This document shows, piece after piece, positions 1 to 11,862 of a stretch of 64,000 nt of DNA (position 1 is its first letter; each line of letters begins with the position of its first letter). Source of the DNA: Escherichia coli (GTDB lineage: Bacteria > Pseudomonadota > Gammaproteobacteria > Enterobacterales > Enterobacteriaceae). A model generated the notes under the pieces. The model worked only from the letters and a program-made list of their open reading frames with translations. It was not told the origin of the DNA and ran no database searches. Where the stretch lies: NCBI RefSeq assembly GCF_024298765.1, contig NZ_CP101210.1; one strand, given 5' to 3'. The translations under genes were made by a program, and so were the position numbers.

Positions 1-182
1 CCCCATTCAAGAACAGCAAGCAGCATTGAGAACTTGGGAATCCAGTCTCTCTTCCACCTGCTGATCTGCGACTTATCAACTCCCACAGCTTCCGCTGTCT
101 TCTCAGTTCCAAGCATTGCGATTTTGTTAAGCAACGCACTCTCGATTCGTAGTGCCTCGTTGCGTTTGTTTGCACGAACCAT
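1..182 (-). CDS. cII: Lambda CII transcriptional activator, N-terminal part only (gene runs off window start)
   Basis: Reverse-strand translation from ATG at 182..180 gives MVRANKRNEALRIESALLNKIAMLGTEKTAEAVGVDKSQISRWKRDWIPKFSMLLAVLEW. Confidence 0.9.
   Translation of the reverse strand, partial: MVRANKRNEALRIESALLNKIAMLGTEKTAEAVGVDKSQISRWKRDWIPKFSMLLAVLEW
160..173 (+). promoter_or_regulatory. pRE region: CII-binding direct repeat TTGC-N6-TTGC overlapping cII start
   Basis: ttgcgtttgtttgc on the strand antisense to cII; matches the known CII recognition motif. Confidence 0.6.
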
Positions 183-261
183 ATGTAAGTATTTCCTTAG
201 ATAACAATTGATTGAATGTATGCAAATAAATGCATACACCATAGGTGTGGTTTAATTGGAT

Positions 262-293
262 GCCCTTTTTCAGGGCGGGGATGGGTAAGAGCG
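262..293 (-). promoter_or_regulatory. nutR (boxA CGCTCTTAC, boxB GCCCTGAAAAAGGGC) between cro and cII
   Basis: Reverse complement of 262..293 reads cgctcttacccatccccgccctgaaaaagggc. Confidence 0.75.
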
Positions 294-300
294 GGGTTAT

Positions 301-510
<210 letters not shown>

Positions 511-527
511 TTAGTACATGCAACTAT

Positions 528-591
528 TATCACCGCCAGAGGTAAAATAGTCAACACGCACGGTGTTAGATATTTATCCCTTGCGGTGATA
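528..591. promoter_or_regulatory. Right operator OR1 (528..544), OR2 (551..567), OR3 (575..591) with divergent pR and pRM
   Basis: Three 17-bp sites tatcaccgccagaggta, caacacgcacggtgtta, tatcccttgcggtgata between cro and cI. Confidence 0.88.
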
Positions 592-598
592 GATTTAA

Positions 599-1315
<717 letters not shown>

Positions 1316-1442
1316 TAGGAAGTAAGTTTTATGTTGACGGCACAGTCAACTTGGCATAGATTAATTAAACCAAGCCCAGCCCCGTTCGCAGACAATTGTT
1401 AATATCTGCATAACGGCTCTGGGCTATTTTTTTGGGACTCTT

Positions 1443-2300
1443 ATGAAGAAAGCAGCAATTTTAATTGATGCGGGTTTTTTCATGCAGCGTGTTCATGCTA
1501 CGCATCGTAAACACTTCGCCGAGCATGAACTGACTGCGCAATGCATAATGAAAGTAATATGGTCAATGGTTCTTTCCCATCTTAATGGAAAACGTCAATC
1601 ACAAGAACGTAGGGAACCGCTTGAGCTTTATAGAATTTACTTCTATGACTGTCCACCACTCGACATTCAAACACGCCTTCCACTTCCTGAGCCTGGCAAT
1701 AAGACGCCTGGTCGCAAGAATTTCAAACTCGAAAAATCATATATTCTGAGAACGGAGCTGCATGAAGAGTTAAGAAAAACTCGAAAAACAGCCTTAAGAT
1801 TAGGGAATCTTGTTGATAATAAGCGATGGCAACTAACTACATTCTCCCTTGATGCTCTGATGAAAGGAACGAAAAAATGGGATGAACTGACAAATGATGA
1901 TTTTTACTATGACATCAAACAAAAACAAGTTGATATCAAGCTAGGGATGGATATCACGACTTTAGCTTATGAAAAACTTGTTGATGTAATTGTCCTTGTT
2001 GCTGGGGACTCAGACTTTGTGCCTGCCGCCAAACACGCCAGAATTAAAGGTATTGATTTTATTCTTGATCCACTAAGACAGAATGTTACCCCATCACTGT
2101 CAGAGCACATTGATGGAGTTCAGTCATACAGCTTGATATCAGGACTTGCCGATGCTTTACATGTTGAGCCAGACCCGGCACCTGACTGGTGGGAAGATCG
2201 AAAAAAAGGCAAGCCTAGGGGAAAAAACAATAGCGGTAAACGCAGGTATGGAAACACTCAAGCTGAGTCTGCAAAGAAACATCAAAGAAATAAACGATAA
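1443..2300 (+). CDS. NYN/LabA-like PIN-fold predicted nuclease with Lys/Arg-rich C-terminal tail; occupies the rexA-rexB position
   Basis: 285-aa ORF with ATG start; motifs AAILIDAGFF, VDIKLGMD and VLVAGDSDFVPAAKHARIKGIDFILD resemble NYN acidic motifs; does not match my recollection of RexA; AT-rich. Confidence 0.75.
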   Translation: MKKAAILIDAGFFMQRVHATHRKHFAEHELTAQCIMKVIWSMVLSHLNGKRQSQERREPLELYRIYFYDCPPLDIQTRLPLPEPGNKTPGRKNFKLEKSYILRTELHEELRKTRKTALRLGNLVDNKRWQLTTFSLDALMKGTKKWDELTNDDFYYDIKQKQVDIKLGMDITTLAYEKLVDVIVLVAGDSDFVPAAKHARIKGIDFILDPLRQNVTPSLSEHIDGVQSYSLISGLADALHVEPDPAPDWWEDRKKGKPRGKNNSGKRRYGNTQAESAKKHQRNKR

Positions 2301-2309
2301 TCCCATCAA

Positions 2310-2336
2310 CCCGGCCACCGAGCCGGGTTTTCTTTG
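2310..2336 (+). terminator. Rho-independent terminator after the NYN gene
   Basis: cccggc-caccga-gccggg hairpin followed by ttttctttg. Confidence 0.6.
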
Positions 2337-2491
2337 CCTCACGATCGCCCCACCTAAAAACACATAACCAATTGTATTTATTTTAAAATTAATAGGTGCA
2401 ACTCACTAAACAACGCAATTCTGATCTCTCGATCACCTCCCAAGCCACACAACCCTGCAAAAAATAAATCTATATAAAAAACATACAGATA

Positions 2492-2552
2492 ACCATCTGC
2501 GGTGATAAATTATCTCTGGCGGTGTTGACACAAATACCACTAGCGGTGATAC
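2492..2552 (+). promoter_or_regulatory. Left operator OL3 (2492..2508), OL2 (2511..2527), OL1 (2535..2551) with pL (-35 ttgaca 2525..2530, -10 gatact 2547..2552)
   Basis: aaccatctgcggtgata, tatctctggcggtgttg, taccactagcggtgata upstream of N. Confidence 0.88.
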
Positions 2553-2592
2553 TAAACACACCAGCAGGACGCACTAACCCACATGAAGGTGA

Positions 2593-2623
2593 TGCTCTTA
2601 AAAATTAAGCCCTGAAGAAGGGC
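2593..2623 (+). promoter_or_regulatory. nutL (boxA tgctcttaa, boxB gccctgaagaagggc)
   Basis: gatgctcttaaaaattaagccctgaagaagggc between pL and N. Confidence 0.8.
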
Positions 2624-2781
2624 AGCATTCAAAGCAGAAGGCTTTGGGGTGTGTGATACGAAACGAAACATTGGCCGGAAGTGCGAATCCGGATTAGCTG
2701 CAAATGAGCCAATCGTGGGGTGTTTTCGTTCAGGACTACGACTCCCACACACCACCAAAGCTAACTGACAAGAGAATCCAG

Positions 2782-3679
<898 letters not shown>

Positions 3680-3802
3680 TTAAAAGACAGGCATACTAAT
3701 AAACACTGCACTGTGTATTTATTCCAACGAGTGAATACACGGAGCAATGTCGCTCGTAACTAAACAGGAGCCGACTTGTTCTGATTATTGGAAATCTTCT
3801 TT

Positions 3803-3829
3803 GCCCTCCAGTGTGAGGGCGATTTTTTA
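3803..3829 (+). terminator. Rho-independent terminator upstream of ea10 (tL1-like)
   Basis: gccctc-cagtgt-gagggc hairpin followed by gattttttat. Confidence 0.5.
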
Positions 3830-3848
3830 TCTATGAGGATATGAATAG

Positions 3849-4217
3849 GTGTCAAACATCAAAAAATACATCATTGATTACGACTGGAAAGCATCAATAG
3901 AAATTGAAATCGACCATGACGTAATGACAGAGGAAAAACTTCACCAGATTAATAATTTCTGGTCAGACTCTGAATACCGACTCAATAAACACGGCTCTGT
4001 ATTAAATGCTGTATTAATCATGCTGGCGCAACATGCTCTGCTTATAGCAATTTCAAGCGACTTAAATGCATATGGTGTTGTGTGTGAGTTCGACTGGAAT
4101 GATGGAAATGGTCAGGAAGGATGGCCTCCAATGGATGGTAGCGAAGGAATAAGAATTACCGATATCGATACATCAGGAATATTTGATTCAGATGATATGG
4201 CTATCAAGGCCGCCTGA
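3849..4217 (+). CDS. ea10: Ea10-like protein (122 aa)
   Basis: GTG-initiated ORF MSNIKKYIIDYDWKASIEIEIDHDVMTEEKLHQINNFWSD...; position collinear with lambda ea10. Confidence 0.8.
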   Translation: MSNIKKYIIDYDWKASIEIEIDHDVMTEEKLHQINNFWSDSEYRLNKHGSVLNAVLIMLAQHALLIAISSDLNAYGVVCEFDWNDGNGQEGWPPMDGSEGIRITDIDTSGIFDSDDMAIKAA

Positions 4218-4289
4218 GTGCGGCTTTACCGCATACCAATAACGCTTCACTCGAGGCGTTTTTCGTTATGTATAAATAAGGAGCACACC

Positions 4290-4430
4290 ATGCAATATGC
4301 CATTGCAGGGTGGCCTGTTGCTGGCTGCCCTTCCGAATCTTTACTTGAACGAATCACCCGTAAATTACGTGACGGATGGAAACGCCTTATCGACATACTT
4401 AATCAGCCAGGAGTACCCAAAAATGGATAA
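4290..4430 (+). CDS. cIII: CIII (FtsH inhibitor), 46 aa here because of an in-frame TAA
   Basis: [46 protein letters not shown] then TAA at 4428..4430. Confidence 0.85.
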   Translation: MQYAIAGWPVAGCPSESLLERITRKLRDGWKRLIDILNQPGVPKNG

Positions 4431-4566
4431 AAAACTTATGGCTATCCAGACAAAATTCACTATTGCCACTTTTATTGGCGATGAAAAGATGTTTCGTGAG
4501 GCCGTCGACGCTTATAAAAAATGGATATTAATACTGAAACTGAGATCAAGCAAAAGCATTCACTAA
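4423..4566 (+). CDS. kil: Kil (host-killing, FtsZ inhibitor), 47 aa
   Basis: [47 protein letters not shown] overlapping cIII end and gam start as in lambda. Confidence 0.8.
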
Positions 4567-4937
4567 CCCCCTTTCCTGTTTTCCTAATCAGCCCGGCATT
4601 TCGCGGGCGATATTTTCACAGCTATTTCAGGAGTTCGGCCATGAACGCTTATTACATTCAGGATCGTCTTGAGGCTCAGAGCTGGGCGCGTCACTACCAG
4701 CAGATAGCCCGTGAAGAGAAAGAGGCAGAACTGGCAGACGACATGGAAAAAGGCCTGCCCCAGCACCTGTTTGAATCGCTATGCATCGATCATTTGCAAC
4801 GCCACGGGGCCAGCAAAAAAGCCATTACCCGTGCGTTTGATGACGATGTTGAGTTTCAGGAGCGCATGGCAGAACACATCCGGTACATGGTTGAAACCAT
4901 TGCTCACCATCAGGTTGATATTGATTCAGAGGTATAA
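4521..4937 (+). CDS. gam: Gam (RecBCD inhibitor)
   Basis: 138-aa [64 protein letters not shown]... Confidence 0.95.
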
Positions 4938-4942
4938 AACGG

Positions 4943-5728
4943 ATGAGTACAGCACTCGCAACGCTGGCAGGGAAGCTGGCTGAACGTGTCGGCATGGATT
5001 CTGTCGACCCACAGGAACTGATCACCACTCTTCGCCAGACGGCATTTAAAGGCGATGCCAGCGATGCGCAGTTCATCGCATTGTTGATCGTCGCCAACCA
5101 GTACGGCCTTAATCCGTGGACGAAAGAAATTTACGCCTTCCCTGACAAGCAGAACGGCATCGTTCCGGTGGTGGGCGTTGATGGCTGGTCCCGTATCATC
5201 AATGAAAACCAGCAGTTTGATGGCATGGACTTTGAGCAGGACAATGAATCATGTACATGCCGGATTTACCGCAAGGACCGTAATCATCCGATCTGCGTTA
5301 CCGAGTGGATGGATGAATGCCGCCGCGAACCATTCAAAACCCGCGAAGGCAGAGAAATCACCGGACCGTGGCAGTCGCATCCCAAACGGATGTTACGGCA
5401 TAAAGCCATGATTCAGTGTGCCCGTCTGGCCTTCGGATTTGCTGGTATCTATGACAAGGATGAAGCCGAGCGCATTGTCGAAAATACCGCATACACTGCA
5501 GAACGTCCGCCGGAACGCGACATCACTCCGGTTAACGATGAAACCATGCAGGAGATTAACACTATGCTGATTGCCCTGGACAAAACATGGGATGACGACT
5601 TATTGCCGCTCTGTTCCCAGATATTTCGCCGCGACATTCGCGCATCGTCAGAACTGACACAGGCCGAAGCAATGAAAGCTCTTGGATTCCTGAAACAGAA
5701 AGCCTCTGAACAGAAGGTGGCTGCATGA
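4943..5728 (+). CDS. bet: Bet (Red-beta single-strand annealing protein)
   Basis: 261-aa [69 protein letters not shown]... Confidence 0.97.
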
Positions 5729-6405
5729 CACCGGACATTATCCTGCAGCGTACCGGGATCGACGTGAGAGCTGTCGAACAGGGGGATGATGCATGGCACA
5801 AATTACGGCTCGGCGTCATCACCGCTTCAGAAGTTCACAACGTGATAGCAAAGCCCCGCTCAGGAAAGAAGTGGCCTGACATGAAAATGTCCTACTTCCA
5901 CACCCTGCTGGCTGAGGTTTGCACCGGTGTGGCTCCGGAAGTTAACGCTAAGGCGCTGGCCTGGGGAAAACAGTACGAGAACGACGCCAGAACCCTCTTT
6001 GAGTTCACTTCCGGCGTTAATGTTACTGAATCCCCGATCATCTATCGCGACGAAAGTATGCGCACCGCCTGCTCTCCCGATGGTTTATGCAGTGACGGCA
6101 ACGGCCTTGAACTGAAATGCCCGTTTACCTCCCGGGATTTCATGAAGTTCCGGCTCGGTGGTTTCGAGGCCATAAAATCGGCTTACATGGCCCAGGTGCA
6201 GTACAGCATGTGGGTGACGCGAAAAGATGCCTGGTACTTTGCCAACTATGACCCACGAATGAAGCGTGAAGGCCTGCATTATGTCGTGGTTGAGCGGGAT
6301 GAAAATTACATGGCGAGTTTTGACGAGATGGTGCCGGAGTTCATCGAAAAAATGGACGAGGCACTGGCTGAAATTGGTTTTGTATTTGGGGAGCAATGGC
6401 GATGA
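5725..6405 (+). CDS. exo: Exo (lambda exonuclease, Red-alpha)
   Basis: 226-aa [68 protein letters not shown]... Confidence 0.97.
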
Positions 6406-6584
6406 CGCATCCTCACGATAATATCCGGGTAGGCGCGATCACTTTCGTCTACTCCATTACAAAGCGAGGCTGGGTATTTCCCGGCCTTTCTGTTATCAGA
6501 AATCCCCTGAAAGCACAGCGGCTGGCTGAGGAGATAAATAATAAACGGGGAGCTGTATGCACAAAGCATCTCCCGTTGAGTTAA
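6396..6584 (+). CDS. Lambda orf60a-like small protein
   Basis: [58 protein letters not shown]... immediately after exo. Confidence 0.6.
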
Positions 6585-6748
6585 GAACGAGTATCGAGAT
6601 GGCACATAGCCTCGCTCAAATTGGAGTCAGGTTTGTGCCAATACCAGTAGAAACAGACGAAGAATTTCATACGTTAGCCGCATCCCTTTCACAAAAGCTG
6701 GAAATGATGGTGGCGAAAGCAGAAGCAGATGAGAGAGACCAGGTATGA
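6557..6748 (+). CDS. Lambda orf63-like small protein
   Basis: 63-aa [66 protein letters not shown]. Confidence 0.6.
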   Translation: MHKASPVELRTSIEMAHSLAQIGVRFVPIPVETDEEFHTLAASLSQKLEMMVAKAEADERDQV

Positions 6749-6824
6749 CAACCACTGAATGCATTTTTCTGGCAGCGGGCTTCATATTCTGTGTGCTTAT
6801 GCTTGCCGACATGGGGCTTGTTCA

Positions 6825-7040
6825 ATGACACCTCAGCAAGAAAACGCCCTTCGCAGCATTGCCCGTCAGGCTAATTCTGAAATCAAAAAAGCCAGACAGC
6901 AGTTTCCGGATAAAAACGTCGATGACATTTGCCGTAGCGTACTAAAGAAGCACCGCGAAACGGTAACGCTGATGGGATTCACACCGACTCATTTAAGCCT
7001 GGCGATCGGCATGTTGAACGGCGTCTTTAAGGAACGGTGA
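6825..7040 (+). CDS. Lambda orf61-like small protein
   Basis: ORF from ATG 6825 MTPQQENALRSIARQANSEIKKARQQFPDKNVDDICRSVLKKHRETVTLMGF...; start choice uncertain. Confidence 0.5.
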   Translation: MTPQQENALRSIARQANSEIKKARQQFPDKNVDDICRSVLKKHRETVTLMGFTPTHLSLAIGMLNGVFKER

Positions 7041-7138
7041 ACATGAAAAGCAAAATCATCAGGGAGCTACAGGCTCCTTTTTTATTATTCGCATTCACCC
7101 TCAAGCGTATTAACCAACAATTCAGGGATTAATGAAAG

Positions 7139-7360
7139 ATGGCAGACATCATTGATTCAGCATCAGAAATTGAAGAATTACAGCGCAACACAGCAATAAA
7201 AATGCGCCGCCTGAACCACCAGGCTATATCTGCCACTCATTGTTGTGAGTGTGGCGATCCGATAGATGAACGAAGACGCTTGGCCGTTCAGGGTTGTCGG
7301 ACTTGTGCAAGTTGCCAGGAGGATCTGGAACTTATCAGTAAACAGAGAGGTTCGAAGTGA
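7139..7360 (+). CDS. TraR/DksA-family C4 zinc-finger protein (lambda orf73-like)
   Basis: 73-aa ORF with CCECGDPIDERRRLAVQGCRTCASC four-cysteine finger. Confidence 0.8.
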   Translation: MADIIDSASEIEELQRNTAIKMRRLNHQAISATHCCECGDPIDERRRLAVQGCRTCASCQEDLELISKQRGSK

Positions 7361-7905
7361 GCGAAATTAACTCTCAGGCACTGCGTGAGGCGGCAGTAGC
7401 AATTGAAACAGTAGCAACACCTCAAAAATTGCTGGCATTTCGTATGAAAGTCACACCTCAGGTTGTGCTGGCTCTACTGGATGAACGAGATGCATTAAAT
7501 GAACGCCTAGCCGAACTGGAGGCTGATTTAGCAGGGCTGGCCGAAGACCACCAGAAAGCGACTGAGTCAATTAAGCAGGCTGATGCAGCTGTTAAGTTGG
7601 CACACGAGAAGTTTTCGGCGCTGGCGGCGGAGAATGAGCTGGCTCGTAAAGCAGTTCAGGAATTCTGCGATGTTGTTGGCGACAGCACCGAGGTTATCTG
7701 CGAGGAGATTGGGAGAGATGGTGTTCTGGTTATTTTGGAGGCCATGAAGGCAACAGGAAATATGCCAGCCACCGATGCTTTCCTGGCTGAAGTACGGGCG
7801 CAGGGGGTGGAGATGATGCGCGAACATCCATCAATCAAACTTTGCTCTTTGACGCACATATGTGATGAGTTAGCCGCCCAGCTTCGCAAAGGAGGCAACC
7901 AGTGA
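7357..7905 (+). CDS. ea22: Ea22-like protein (182 aa, coiled-coil)
   Basis: 182-aa ORF collinear with lambda ea22; MSEINSQALREAAVAIETVATPQKLLAF... Confidence 0.7.
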   Translation: MSEINSQALREAAVAIETVATPQKLLAFRMKVTPQVVLALLDERDALNERLAELEADLAGLAEDHQKATESIKQADAAVKLAHEKFSALAAENELARKAVQEFCDVVGDSTEVICEEIGRDGVLVILEAMKATGNMPATDAFLAEVRAQGVEMMREHPSIKLCSLTHICDELAAQLRKGGNQ

Positions 7906-8035
7906 CTGGACATGCAGCAATCCTCGACATGTGCTGTGGCAGTCGCATGTTCTGGTTAGATAAGAATGACGAACGGGCGAGATAAGCGATCGGTTAAGTG
8001 CTATAGTAATGCGCTTTTGTATTTATGGAGTGAAT

Positions 8036-8734
8036 ATGAAAAATATCCTACTGGCATCATTGTTAGTGGCATCGCCGGGTGCATTTGCAGCCAGCTTTGA
8101 CTGCCAAAAGGCTTCGACAGCAATCGAACATAAAATCTGCGATAACGAACGTCTGTCAAAATTAGACGAACAGCTTAGCTCTGCCTATTCTAGTGCCCTC
8201 AAAGGAAACCCAGAGAACGCAGACACCCTAAAAATGGTTCAACGTCAGTGGGTAAATATGCGTGGAAAACTCACTGATAATAAGGCTCTGGAGCTGGCTT
8301 ATCTTATCCAAATTAATGGCCTCAAAGGTTTGGGGAGTTCAGTCAGCGTAACAGCGGCCAATGACATACCCACGTCGGCGCAGAAACATTCTAAAGAGCA
8401 GGAAGATACAAGTAAGGCAGAAGCTAAGTCGGTCAAGAACGGCAATAAGCTAACCTTAGAGTCATTCCGAGCTAAATATGTAGAAGTAGATGGTGAGTAT
8501 TACAGCACGACATCCATTCCTAGAGGCAGTTCGTTCTTGTTCACTTGCGCTAGTCGTATTGCTGATGACCAAGTGAATATTTGGAAGAAACAGGCAGCCA
8601 AAGAGGGCAAAATCGACCTATTCTTTGAGGTTGAGAATCACTTACACACGGCTATGTTGAACGCCAATTTTCAGAAGTTGAATTCAGACCCTGCCAAAAG
8701 AGGTATTTGTAATCTGATTAACGCAGTGCCGTAA
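8036..8734 (+). CDS. Secreted protein with signal peptide and DUF1311/LprI-like N-terminal domain; replaces ea8.5
   Basis: MKNILLASLLVASPGAFAASFDCQKASTAIEHKICDNERLSKLDEQLSSAYSSALKG...QRQW; GGAG RBS before ATG 8036. Confidence 0.7.
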   Translation: MKNILLASLLVASPGAFAASFDCQKASTAIEHKICDNERLSKLDEQLSSAYSSALKGNPENADTLKMVQRQWVNMRGKLTDNKALELAYLIQINGLKGLGSSVSVTAANDIPTSAQKHSKEQEDTSKAEAKSVKNGNKLTLESFRAKYVEVDGEYYSTTSIPRGSSFLFTCASRIADDQVNIWKKQAAKEGKIDLFFEVENHLHTAMLNANFQKLNSDPAKRGICNLINAVP

Positions 8735-8744
8735 GTAAATTTAG

Positions 8745-8775
8745 GGCCACAGTTGTGGCCTTAAATATTTTTTTC
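8745..8775 (+). terminator. Putative rho-independent terminator after the DUF1311 gene
   Basis: ggccac-agtt-gtggcc hairpin followed by T-rich run. Confidence 0.45.
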
Positions 8776-8970
8776 AGCCTTTTCTTATTTGTAATAAGCA
8801 GTACTTGGTAGTGCTTATAAAACAGAATAAAAAATATATGACTTTGGCGATTACCCAGTAAAGATATTCGAAATAAATGTAAATATCGACAATGAATAAC
8901 TATCCTCGCACTCGCGGGGATTTCTTTTATCTGAACTCGCTACGGCGAGTTTTTTTTATGGAGATGATAA

Positions 8971-9138
8971 ATGCACTTCCGAGTCACAGGTGAATGGAAT
9001 GGAGAACCATTCAACAGAGTTATCGAAGCCGAGAACATCAGCGACTGCTATGACCACTGGATGCTGTGGGCGCAGATAGCACATGCAGACGTAACCAATA
9101 TTCGAATTGAAGAACTGAAAGAACACCAAGCCGCCTGA
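8971..9138 (+). CDS. Lambda orf55-like small protein (below 60-aa ORF-track cutoff)
   Basis: MHFRVTGEWNGEPFNRVIEAENISDCYDHWMLWAQIAHADVTNIRIEELKEHQAA; collinear with lambda orf55 upstream of xis; followed by gccgcc..ggcggc hairpin + T-run. Confidence 0.65.
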   Translation: MHFRVTGEWNGEPFNRVIEAENISDCYDHWMLWAQIAHADVTNIRIEELKEHQAA

Positions 9139-9177
9139 TGGCGGTTTTTTCTTGCGTGTAATTGCGGAGACTTTGCG

Positions 9178-9396
9178 ATGTACTTGACACTTCAGGAGTG
9201 GAACGCACGCCAGCGACGCCCAAGAAGCCTTGAAACAGTTCGTCGATGGGTACGCGAGTGCAGGATATTCCCTCCTCCGGTTAAGGATGGAAGAGAGTAT
9301 CTGTTCCACGAATCAGCGGTAAAGGTTGACTTAAATCGACCAGTAACAGGTAGCCTTTTGAAGAGGATCAGAAATGGGAAGAAGGCGAAGTCATGA
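9178..9396 (+). CDS. xis: Excisionase Xis
   Basis: 72-aa ORF MYLTLQEWNARQRRPRSLETVRRWVRECRIFPPPVKDGREYLFHESAVKVDLNRPVTGSLLKRIRNGKKAKS. Confidence 0.96.
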   Translation: MYLTLQEWNARQRRPRSLETVRRWVRECRIFPPPVKDGREYLFHESAVKVDLNRPVTGSLLKRIRNGKKAKS

Positions 9397-10444
9397 GCGC
9401 CGGGATTTACCCCCTAACCTTTATATAAGAAACAATGGATATTACTGCTACAGGGACCCAAGGACGGGTAAAGAGTTTGGATTAGGCCGAGACAGGCGAA
9501 TCGCAATCACTGAAGCTATACAGGCCAACATTGAGTTATTTTCAGGACACAAACACAAGCCTCTGACAGCGAGAATCAACAGTGATAATTCCGTTACGTT
9601 ACATTCATGGCTTGATCGCTACGAAAAAATCCTGGCCAGCAGAGGAATCAAGCAGAAGACACTCATAAATTACATGAGCAAAATTAAAGCAATAAGGAGG
9701 GGTCTGCCTGATGCTCCACTTGAAGACATCACCACAAAAGAAATTGCGGCAATGCTCAATGGATACATAGACGAGGGCAAGGCGGCATCAGCCAAGTTAA
9801 TCAGATCAACACTGAGCGATGCATTCCGAGAGGCTATAGCTGAAGGCCATATAACAACAAACCCGGTCGCAGCCACTCGCGCTGCAAAATCAGAGGTAAG
9901 GAGATCAAGACTTACGGCTGACGAATACCTGAAAATTTATCAAGCAGCAGAATCATCACCATGTTGGCTTAGACTTGCAATGGAACTGGCTGTTGTTACC
10001 GGGCAGCGAGTTGGTGATTTATGCGAAATGAAGTGGTCTGATATCGTAGATGGATATCTTTATGTCGAGCAAAGCAAAACAGGCGTAAAAATTGCCATCC
10101 CAACAACATTGCATGTTGATGCTCTCGGGATATCAATGAAGGAAACACTTGATAAATGCAAAAAGATTCTTGGCGGAGAAACCATAATTGCATCTACTCG
10201 TCGTGAACCGCTTTCATCCGGCACAGTATCAAGGTATTTTATGCGCGCACGAAAAGCATCAGGTCTTTCCTTCGAAGGGGATCCGCCTACCTTTCACGAG
10301 TTGCGCAGTTTGTCTGCAAGACTCTATGAGAAGCAGATAAGCGATAAGTTTGCTCAACATCTTCTCGGGCATAAGTCGGACACCATGGCATCACAGTATC
10401 GTGATGACAGAGGCAGGGAGTGGGACAAAATTGAAATCAAATAA
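9374..10444 (+). CDS. int: Integrase Int (tyrosine recombinase)
   Basis: 356-aa ORF MGRRRSHERRDLPPNLYIRNNGYYCYRDPRTGKEFGLGRDRRIAITEAIQANIELFSG... overlapping xis end. Confidence 0.97.
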   Translation: MGRRRSHERRDLPPNLYIRNNGYYCYRDPRTGKEFGLGRDRRIAITEAIQANIELFSGHKHKPLTARINSDNSVTLHSWLDRYEKILASRGIKQKTLINYMSKIKAIRRGLPDAPLEDITTKEIAAMLNGYIDEGKAASAKLIRSTLSDAFREAIAEGHITTNPVAATRAAKSEVRRSRLTADEYLKIYQAAESSPCWLRLAMELAVVTGQRVGDLCEMKWSDIVDGYLYVEQSKTGVKIAIPTTLHVDALGISMKETLDKCKKILGGETIIASTRREPLSSGTVSRYFMRARKASGLSFEGDPPTFHELRSLSARLYEKQISDKFAQHLLGHKSDTMASQYRDDRGREWDKIEIK

Positions 10445-10532
10445 TGATTTTATTTTGACTGATAGTGACCTGTTCGTTGCAACAAATTGATAAGCAATGC
10501 TTTTTTATAATGCCAACTTAGTATAAAAAAGC
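10445..10532. other. attL: P' arm plus 15-bp core (10518..10532, ttagtataaaaaagc = reverse complement of GCTTTTTTATACTAA)
   Basis: Sequence downstream of int matches lambda P' arm and core, followed by bacterial attB flank aggcttca. Confidence 0.9.
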
Positions 10533-10578: not shown

Positions 10579-11862
10579 GTGAACACATTTTCAGTTTCCC
10601 GTCTGGCGCTGGCATTGGCTTTTGGCGTGACGCTGACCGCCTGTAGCTCAACACCGCCCGATCAACGTCCTTCTGATCAAACCGCGCCTGGTACCTCTTC
10701 TCGCCCGATTCTGTCGGCAAAAGAAGCGCAGAATTTCGATGCTCAACACTATTTTGCATCCCTGACACCAGGTGCGGCAGCGTGGAATCCTTCCCCGATT
10801 ACCCTGCCTGCACAACCTGACTTTGTTGTCGGCCCGGCGGGTACTCAAGGTGTAACGCATACCACGATTCAGGCGGCGGTAGATGCGGCAATTATCAAGC
10901 GTACCAACAAGCGCCAGTATATTGCCGTGATGCCTGGTGAGTATCAGGGAACGGTATATGTCCCTGCCGCTCCGGGTGGAATTACTCTGTACGGTACAGG
11001 TGAAAAACCGATTGATGTGAAGATTGGGCTTTCCCTTGATGGGGGCATGAGCCCTGCCGACTGGCGTCACGACGTCAACCCGCGCGGCAAATATATGCCA
11101 GGTAAACCAGCGTGGTATATGTACGATAGCTGCCAGAGCAAACGCAGCGACAGTATCGGCGTTCTCTGCTCTGCGGTCTTCTGGTCACAAAACAATGGAC
11201 TGCAACTGCAAAACCTGACCATCGAAAACACGCTGGGCGATAGCGTAGATGCGGGTAACCATCCGGCGGTGGCACTGCGTACTGATGGTGACCAGGTACA
11301 GATTAACAACGTTAACATTCTCGGTCGTCAGAACACCTTCTTTGTCACCAACAGCGGTGTGCAGAACCGTCTGGAAACGAATCGTCAGCCGCGTACGCTG
11401 GTGACCAACAGCTACATTGAAGGGGATGTGGATATCGTTTCTGGTCGCGGCGCAGTGGTGTTCGATAATACCGAATTCCGCGTGGTGAACTCACGTACTC
11501 AGCAAGAAGCGTATGTGTTTGCACCGGCTACGCTGTCCAACATTTACTACGGTTTCCTCGCCGTAAACAGTCGTTTCAATGCTTCCGGTGATGGCGTGGC
11601 GCAACTGGGCCGCTCGCTGGATGTTGATGCCAATACCAACGGTCAGGTGGTGATCCGTGATAGCGCCATCAACGAAGGTTTTAACACAGCCAAACCGTGG
11701 GCTGATGCGGTGATTTCCAATCGTCCATTCGCGGGTAACACCGGCAGCGTTGATGATAACGACGAAGTACAGCGCAATCTGAATGACACTAACTACAACC
11801 GCATGTGGGAATACAATAACCGCGGCGTGGGTAGCAAAGTGGTTGCAGAGGCGAAGAAGTAG
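10579..11862 (+). CDS. ybhC: YbhC outer-membrane lipoprotein (pectinesterase-like acyl-CoA thioesterase)
   Basis: 427-aa ORF with lipoprotein signal MNTFSVSRLALALAFGVTLTACSS; GTG start. Confidence 0.9.
   Translation: MNTFSVSRLALALAFGVTLTACSSTPPDQRPSDQTAPGTSSRPILSAKEAQNFDAQHYFASLTPGAAAWNPSPITLPAQPDFVVGPAGTQGVTHTTIQAAVDAAIIKRTNKRQYIAVMPGEYQGTVYVPAAPGGITLYGTGEKPIDVKIGLSLDGGMSPADWRHDVNPRGKYMPGKPAWYMYDSCQSKRSDSIGVLCSAVFWSQNNGLQLQNLTIENTLGDSVDAGNHPAVALRTDGDQVQINNVNILGRQNTFFVTNSGVQNRLETNRQPRTLVTNSYIEGDVDIVSGRGAVVFDNTEFRVVNSRTQQEAYVFAPATLSNIYYGFLAVNSRFNASGDGVAQLGRSLDVDANTNGQVVIRDSAINEGFNTAKPWADAVISNRPFAGNTGSVDDNDEVQRNLNDTNYNRMWEYNNRGVGSKVVAEAKK

Follow-up and report, generated by a model that had tools for sequence, protein, structure and literature searches.

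A common 46-residue form of the lysogeny factor CIII in a lambda-like prophage of Escherichia coli

Results

The window analysed here is a 64,000-nucleotide stretch of Escherichia coli DNA (contig NZ_CP101210.1), and all positions refer to it. It begins in a lambda-like prophage that is essentially phage ev099, located at the classical lambda attachment site by ybhC. Positions 1-10532 matched ev099 (NC_049953) at 99.97%, with three mismatches and no gaps, and positions 1-25000 were 100% identical in several complete E. coli chromosomes. The annotated order in NZ_CP070071, which is 100% identical, is CII (cut), Cro, CI, an NYN-domain protein, N, a minus-strand hypothetical protein, Ea10/DUF2528, CIII (4290-4430), Kil (4423-4566), Gam, Bet, Exo, several small genes, Xis and Int, followed by ybhC and mod genes. 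The CII family gene, cro, cI and N are all present in the same prophage, CII lying at the window start on the opposite strand. N occupies 2782-3105 on the plus strand, and cIII is located downstream of it in the leftward early (pL) operon (Table 1). The prophage ends at about 10,505-10,532, where the lambda att core CCAACTTAGTATAAAAAAGC meets the bacterial arm AGGCTTCA; ev099 ceases to match after 10532, and ybhC follows at 10579.

Two further genes of the early region were noted in passing. An intact ORF of 285 aa with an NYN domain (PIN-like nuclease fold) lies between cI and N at 1443-2300, where lambda has rexA/rexB, and its position hints at a defence or exclusion gene expressed in the lysogen. 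PGAP splits this gene into a pseudo-CDS and a 117-aa CDS in an identical genome, but the ORF is uninterrupted in the window and the split reflects no real disruption. A hypothetical ORF of 167 aa lies antisense on the minus strand between N and ea10 (3098-3601), at the position of lambda sieB, and carries paired CxxC motifs (CAQC ... CHRC) in its C-terminal half.

Table 1. Features of the cIII/kil region and its neighbours
Feature	Coordinates	Strand	Description and basis
ea10 (DUF2528)	3849..4217	+	upstream neighbour in the pL operon; annotation
cIII Shine-Dalgarno, AAGGAG	4278..4283	+	6 nt before ATG 4290; read from the sequence
cIII CDS, short form	4290..4430	+	46 codons and TAA; FtsH-inhibitory lysogeny factor CIII; translation
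CIII residues 14-37	4329..4400	+	amphipathic region (Kobiler 2007, PMC1838920, citing Kornitzer 1991); DNA identical to lambda
kil Shine-Dalgarno, AGGAG	4409..4413	+	within cIII, 9 nt before kil ATG; read from the sequence
50-nt difference patch	4415..4464	+	differences from lambda at 4415, 4418, 4421, 4429, 4433, 4452 and 4464; alignment
kil CDS	4423..4566	+	47 aa, MDKKL... variant of the host cell-division inhibitor; translation, Pfam, annotated WP_000358700.1
cIII TAA stop	4428..4430	+	TCA (Ser47) in lambda; kil codon 3 begins with base 4429
post-stop codons	4431..4451	+	KTYGYPD in the cIII frame; codons 3-10 in the kil frame (K-K-L-M-A-I-Q-T)
site of lambda's cIII stop codon	4452..4454	+	AAA here; alignment
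gam	4641..4937	+	downstream neighbour; annotation

The Pfam analysis showed that the 46-aa protein is a complete member of the CIII family. PF02061 (Lambda_CIII) matched at 106.1 bits against a cut-off of 25.7, CIII residues 2-43 covering model positions 1-42 of 42, and both score and extent were the same as for the 54-aa lambda form. The stop at codon 47 thus lies outside the conserved domain (residues 2-43) and outside the essential region (14-37). The model match, residues 14-37 and the pL operon and CII context are all present; the 54 residues with the SNTYGYPD end are not, the protein being 46 aa long. Length is no defining trait of the family, however: the annotated proteins are anywhere between 43 and 55 aa long, and the Pfam model already ends at residue 43. 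The overlapping gene also encodes a regular Kil: PF06301 (Lambda Kil, the FtsZ-ring inhibitor) scored 69.9 bits against a cut-off of 27.6, its positions 1-31 of 31 corresponding to Kil residues 2-32, and the overlap with the cIII 3' end expected of kil is present. A longer, 138-aa form of gam is also open, starting at 4521 and overlapping kil. The NCBIfam search gave no match for CIII or Kil in either form, an uninformative outcome.

The region from cIII to kil is 98% identical to lambda DNA, and therefore the resemblance is plain homology in which chance is no issue. The reference lambda (NC_001416) reads GGA TCA AAC ACT TAT GGC TAT CCA GAC TAA, which gives ...KNGSNTYGYPD followed by the stop, 54 aa in all. 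The aligned 311 nt (4270-4580) contain eight differences between the window and lambda, of which seven fall within 4415-4464. Positions 4270-4414, comprising the upstream leader from 4270, the Shine-Dalgarno and codons 1-41, are lambda base for base, and the differences at 4415, 4418 and 4421 are synonymous third positions of cIII codons 42-44; CIII residues 1-46 are accordingly identical to those of lambda CIII (NP_040620.1, PF02061). The change of C to A at 4429 turns TCA into TAA in cIII and Gln3 (CAA) into Lys (AAA) in Kil. A second change of C to A, at 4433, lies after the cIII stop and replaces Kil Thr4 by Lys (T4K), so that the window Kil begins MDKKL and that of lambda MDQTL. At 4452, T to A replaces the lambda cIII stop by AAA and leaves Kil Thr10 unchanged (ACT to ACA), and the difference at 4464 is likewise synonymous in kil. 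In the cIII frame, KTYGYPD is followed by 10 further residues and a TGA at 4482-4484. The clustering of seven differences at the junction of the two genes looks more like a short mosaic patch left by recombination than like new mutations scattered over the region. The initial annotation had described most of this correctly: translation from ATG 4290 gave 46 codons, TAA and then KTYGYPD, the C-terminus that it gave for 54-aa lambda CIII agreed with NC_001416, the kil N-terminus is MDKKL from ATG 4423, and the alignment placed the stop, relative to lambda, at codon 47 in the cIII/kil overlap. It had overlooked that the site of the lambda stop is AAA here and that residue 48 of the cIII frame is K, not N.

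In both lambda and the window, cIII lies in the pL operon with ea10 before it and kil/gam after it, and overlaps kil; however, the overlap is 32 nt in lambda and 8 nt in the window, and the window protein lacks the last eight residues, SNTYGYPD. At the window junction, ATGGATAA, the kil ATG lies inside cIII, and the cIII stop sits 3 nt past the kil start as against 29 bases past it in lambda. A stop 3 bases past the start is an arrangement favouring termination-reinitiation coupling, which may affect Kil output. The kil Shine-Dalgarno is kept in all aligned relatives and the Kil N-terminus (LMAIQ) is conserved. Base 4429 serves both genes, cIII stop versus Ser47 in one frame and Kil Lys3 versus Gln3 in the other. 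TYGYPD persists after the cIII stop because the same bases encode Kil residues 4-10 in the other frame, and the likeness of the post-stop codons to the lambda C-terminus is a by-product of selection on kil, not a relic of a recently disabled cIII tail. The same effect is seen in the diverged DNA of Salmonella phage ES18, whose cIII frame reads ...CNG, stop, ITYGYSV, stop.

The short allele is frequent. Allele counts were made with allele-specific 30-mers, every 28-base seed of which spans the variable bases. The window allele (TAA AAA) was found in 75 of 5,426 complete E. coli genomes and in two GenBank phage records, both of ev099, and the TAA AAC allele in 220 of these genomes (248 places) and 76 phage records. 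The lambda allele (TCA AAC) occurred in 942 of the 5,426 genomes (1,107 places) and in 134 phage records. Codon 47 is therefore TAA in 295 genomes versus TCA in 942, and in 78 versus 134 phage records; the 54-aa form is the majority among E. coli genomes and is clearly not disfavoured there. In IMG/VR, scanned with any base allowed at the variable sites, 120 loci were found among the matches listed, 47 with TAA (nine flanking haplotypes) and 73 with TCA. The 46-codon ORFs of the listed TAA loci were nearly all intact, with an almost invariant protein. The position of the lambda stop was lost in 7 of the 47 listed TAA loci and in none of the 73 TCA loci, counts that are not phylogenetically independent. 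Taken over these samples, between about one fifth and two fifths of lambda-type cIII genes are of the short form. Its phage carriers include ev099, HK620, HK629, JEP4, TL-2011a, 49 Stx2a-converting and 21 Stx1a-converting phages; for ev099, HK620, HK629, JEP4 and many of the Stx-converting phages the deposited sequence is a complete phage genome.

The exact 46-aa protein is RefSeq WP_001198858.1, named "protease FtsH-inhibitory lysogeny factor CIII", and occurs on at least 1,000 contigs of the protein collection. The exact window Kil is likewise found on at least 1,000 contigs, and both Kil forms are abundant, each reaching at least that number. Only exact-sequence contig counts were used here and cluster size was not taken as a count; the 90%-identity cluster that contains CIII has a 122-aa DUF2528 (Ea10) protein as its representative and mixes two families, a clustering artefact. 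PGAP annotates the gene as a normal CDS, WP_001198858.1, without a pseudogene flag in three different genomes, in NZ_CP070071 at the exact coordinates. The depositors of the HK620 GenBank entry (AF335538, 2001) had already remarked 'protein shorter than similar proteins due internal stop codon'. The 46-aa CIII is thus an ordinary and frequent natural form that was noted in 2001 and is annotated today, and its finding here is a rediscovery. Upstream of its own start, the kil frame stays open as far as an ATG 7 nt inside cIII (4297-4566), and the records of ev099, HK629 and VT1-Sakai annotate an 80-89-aa 'Kil', those of ev099 and HK629 omitting cIII. This long 'Kil' is an artefact of annotation, and in several phage records it conceals the short cIII.

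Comparison with more distant phages showed that the window junction is widespread. Phages APC_JM3.2, JEP4 and HK620 of E. coli and epsilon34 and ST160 of Salmonella have a CIII of 46-55 aa ending in ...NG-TAA, the ATGGATAA junction with its 8-nt overlap, and a lambda-type Kil beginning MDK(S/T)L. HK620 CIII (AAK28863.1) is 46 aa long with the same TAA and the same junction as in the window, but in HK620, as in most carriers, the stop is followed by AAC (Kil MDKTL) and the downstream TAA of lambda is kept, where the window has AAA in both places; HK620 also differs in its 37-aa Kil and P22-like genome. The Salmonella P22-like phages (epsilon34, ST160 and P22) share the CIII core ...ESLLxRITRKLRxGWKRLxDILNQPGVP but show about 20% amino-acid divergence in CIII, and in epsilon34 and ST160 it ends in ...CNG-TAA. 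Salmonella phage ES18 has its cIII stop at codon 29 (annotated as 28 aa), 46 nt before the kil ATG and without overlap, and its lambda-type Kil begins MDKSL; the ATGGATAA junction is still there downstream of the early stop. That stop (cIII at 359-445 of the ES18 record) falls within the essential residues 14-37 and the rest of the gene is readable in frame. The ES18 cIII is a real truncation, unlike the window allele. The junction is therefore common to all six lambda-type-kil phages examined outside lambda's own 47-aa-Kil module. Other arrangements were found in Erwinia phage Midgardsormr38 (CIII of 45 aa ending in ...NQPGKP, 4-nt overlap, a different downstream gene), in HK544 (43 aa, 16-nt overlap) and in P22 and SE1 (52 and 50 aa, the P22 protein ending in ...SHDYCAC, 20-nt overlap with an unrelated 62-aa kil).

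For a neighbour-joining tree of 58 unique haplotypes, the Salmonella phages served as the root and the polymorphic site was masked; its basis of about 230 nt, with few informative sites and from freely recombining phages, allowed qualitative use only. All outgroup and basal lineages carry A at the site, and C is found mostly in the crown group around lambda. The window haplotype nests among TCA-bearing haplotypes close to lambda.

Discussion

Based on the domain content of the gene and its distribution, we consider that positions 4290-4430 are an intact, functional cIII of a lambda-like prophage in its common short 46-aa form, with a probability of about 0.85. According to Kobiler 2007 (PMC1838920), citing Kornitzer 1991, CIII activity depends on residues 14-37, which also suffice for it and form the best-conserved part of the protein. 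Lambda CIII is described as an oligomeric amphipathic helix that competitively blocks the binding of CII to FtsH and is itself degraded by FtsH (PMC1838920). In the window these residues are unchanged from lambda in both DNA and protein, and the suggestion of the initial annotation that the region needed for FtsH inhibition is retained and function may persist agrees with this, activity being a prediction from sequence. From the domain content and the carriage of the allele by sequenced phages, we infer that the 46-aa CIII very probably retains its FtsH-inhibiting function. A synthetic 14-37 peptide was reportedly found by Halder in 2007 to inhibit HflB in vitro.

The 46-aa CIII would be made early from the pL transcript, as lambda CIII is, and its residues 14-37 would form the amphipathic helix, CIII competing with CII for the host protease FtsH; this competition would protect CII and thereby promote lysogeny. 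Codon 47, with the stop, lies past the conserved ...LNQPGVP core, in the tail, which differs in length within the family (43 to 55 aa), and the base that creates the stop also sets Kil residue 3 to Lys and puts the cIII stop 3 nt after the kil start. The tail may still have a quantitative role, in the stability of CIII or the rate of its degradation by FtsH.

The initial annotation had presented the gene as a truncation of the canonical form. The stop relative to lambda stands, but a noteworthy truncation it is not, since WP_001198858.1 and HK620 carry the same 46-aa form; it had also named reference alleles ending at the same position as evidence against its reading, and such alleles exist, the HK620 one since 2001. 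A recent inactivating nonsense mutation, with cIII degenerating in a resident prophage for which establishing lysogeny is no longer required, would fit the change being formally nonsense relative to reference lambda, and true truncations of cIII do occur, as in ES18 at codon 29. We regard it as very improbable here. The conserved domain is already complete before the stop, the 46 codons that precede the stop are preserved among carriers with hardly any variation, codons 42-44 differ from lambda only synonymously, and the prophage matches ev099 at 99.97% over 10.5 kb without gaps; the allele itself is present in hundreds of genomes and in phages deposited as complete genomes, and because of these frequencies the decay reading is largely refuted. 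Neither is the apparent survival of C-terminal codons downstream, on which the initial annotation had relied, a trace of a lost cIII end, as it is an out-of-frame reading of conserved kil codons. The stop might be bypassed by read-through or frameshifting to give a longer CIII or a CIII-Kil fusion, which was considered only for the A-rich tract around it (AAAAATGGATAAAAAAC) and for which nothing was found in favour. Read-through would yield a 64-residue product and not the lambda protein, the lambda stop being gone as well, no recoding signal is conserved, and TAA is the same stop in diverged relatives with differing downstream sequence in the cIII frame, all of which makes a bypass hardly credible. 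The chance of a sequencing or assembly error at 4428-4430 is negligible. It has only the single-base difference from lambda at the critical codon in its favour, and it is refuted by the same bases in independently sequenced genomes and phage isolates (ev099 and 75 complete E. coli genomes), the neighbouring substitutions making up a consistent haplotype; the doubt that had been raised about position 4428 is thereby excluded.

Selection may also act on kil and not on cIII, maintaining the polymorphism through Kil residue 3 (Lys or Gln) or through the coupling of kil translation to cIII, with the length of the CIII tail following passively. In its favour, a single base is read in both genes, Kil carries a further change in the window allele (T4K, beyond the cIII stop), and Lys3 is found in Kil of all diverged relatives; moreover, the cIII stop overlaps the downstream start in every relative examined but ES18, even where the downstream genes are not homologous (4, 8, 16, 20 and 32 nt). 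On the other hand, both Kil forms are on at least 1000 contigs each and neither is obviously favoured, and we hold this explanation to be possible but rather doubtful. It is compatible with an intact short cIII, as it concerns only which gene is the target of selection.

As to which form is older, the short one is probably ancestral for phages with lambda-type kil, and the SNTYGYPD of lambda would be a stop-loss extension read into kil, because all six lambda-type-kil relatives examined share the ATGGATAA junction. The A carried by all outgroup and basal lineages of the tree supports this order without proving it. The direction from 54 to 46 aa assumed by the initial annotation is thus probably the reverse of what happened. 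The window haplotype itself nests among lambda-like ones and carries the 50-nt difference patch, which suggests that its junction was gained by recombination from a TAA-bearing relative. In this lineage, then, the TAA need not simply have been retained; it could have come back by recombination or even have arisen as a new mutation. We tentatively propose, as a scenario somewhat unlikely to hold in full, that the ancestral CIII was of about 46 aa with its stop on the kil start (ATGGATAA) and kil translation tightly coupled, and that a single change of A to C in the lineage of lambda lost the stop, added eight residues read out of the kil frame, turned Kil Lys3 into Gln and, with an overlap of 32 nt, loosened the coupling. 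In that case the distinction between the two widespread alleles would be in the amount of Kil made per CIII and not in CIII activity.

The significance of these results is small and mainly a matter of annotation housekeeping, the coupling of Kil being an only mildly new idea. The 54 aa of lambda CIII should not count as the norm of the family, and short cIII genes should not be flagged as pseudogenes. Of modest biological interest is that the two common alleles may differ in Kil dosage or in CIII turnover.
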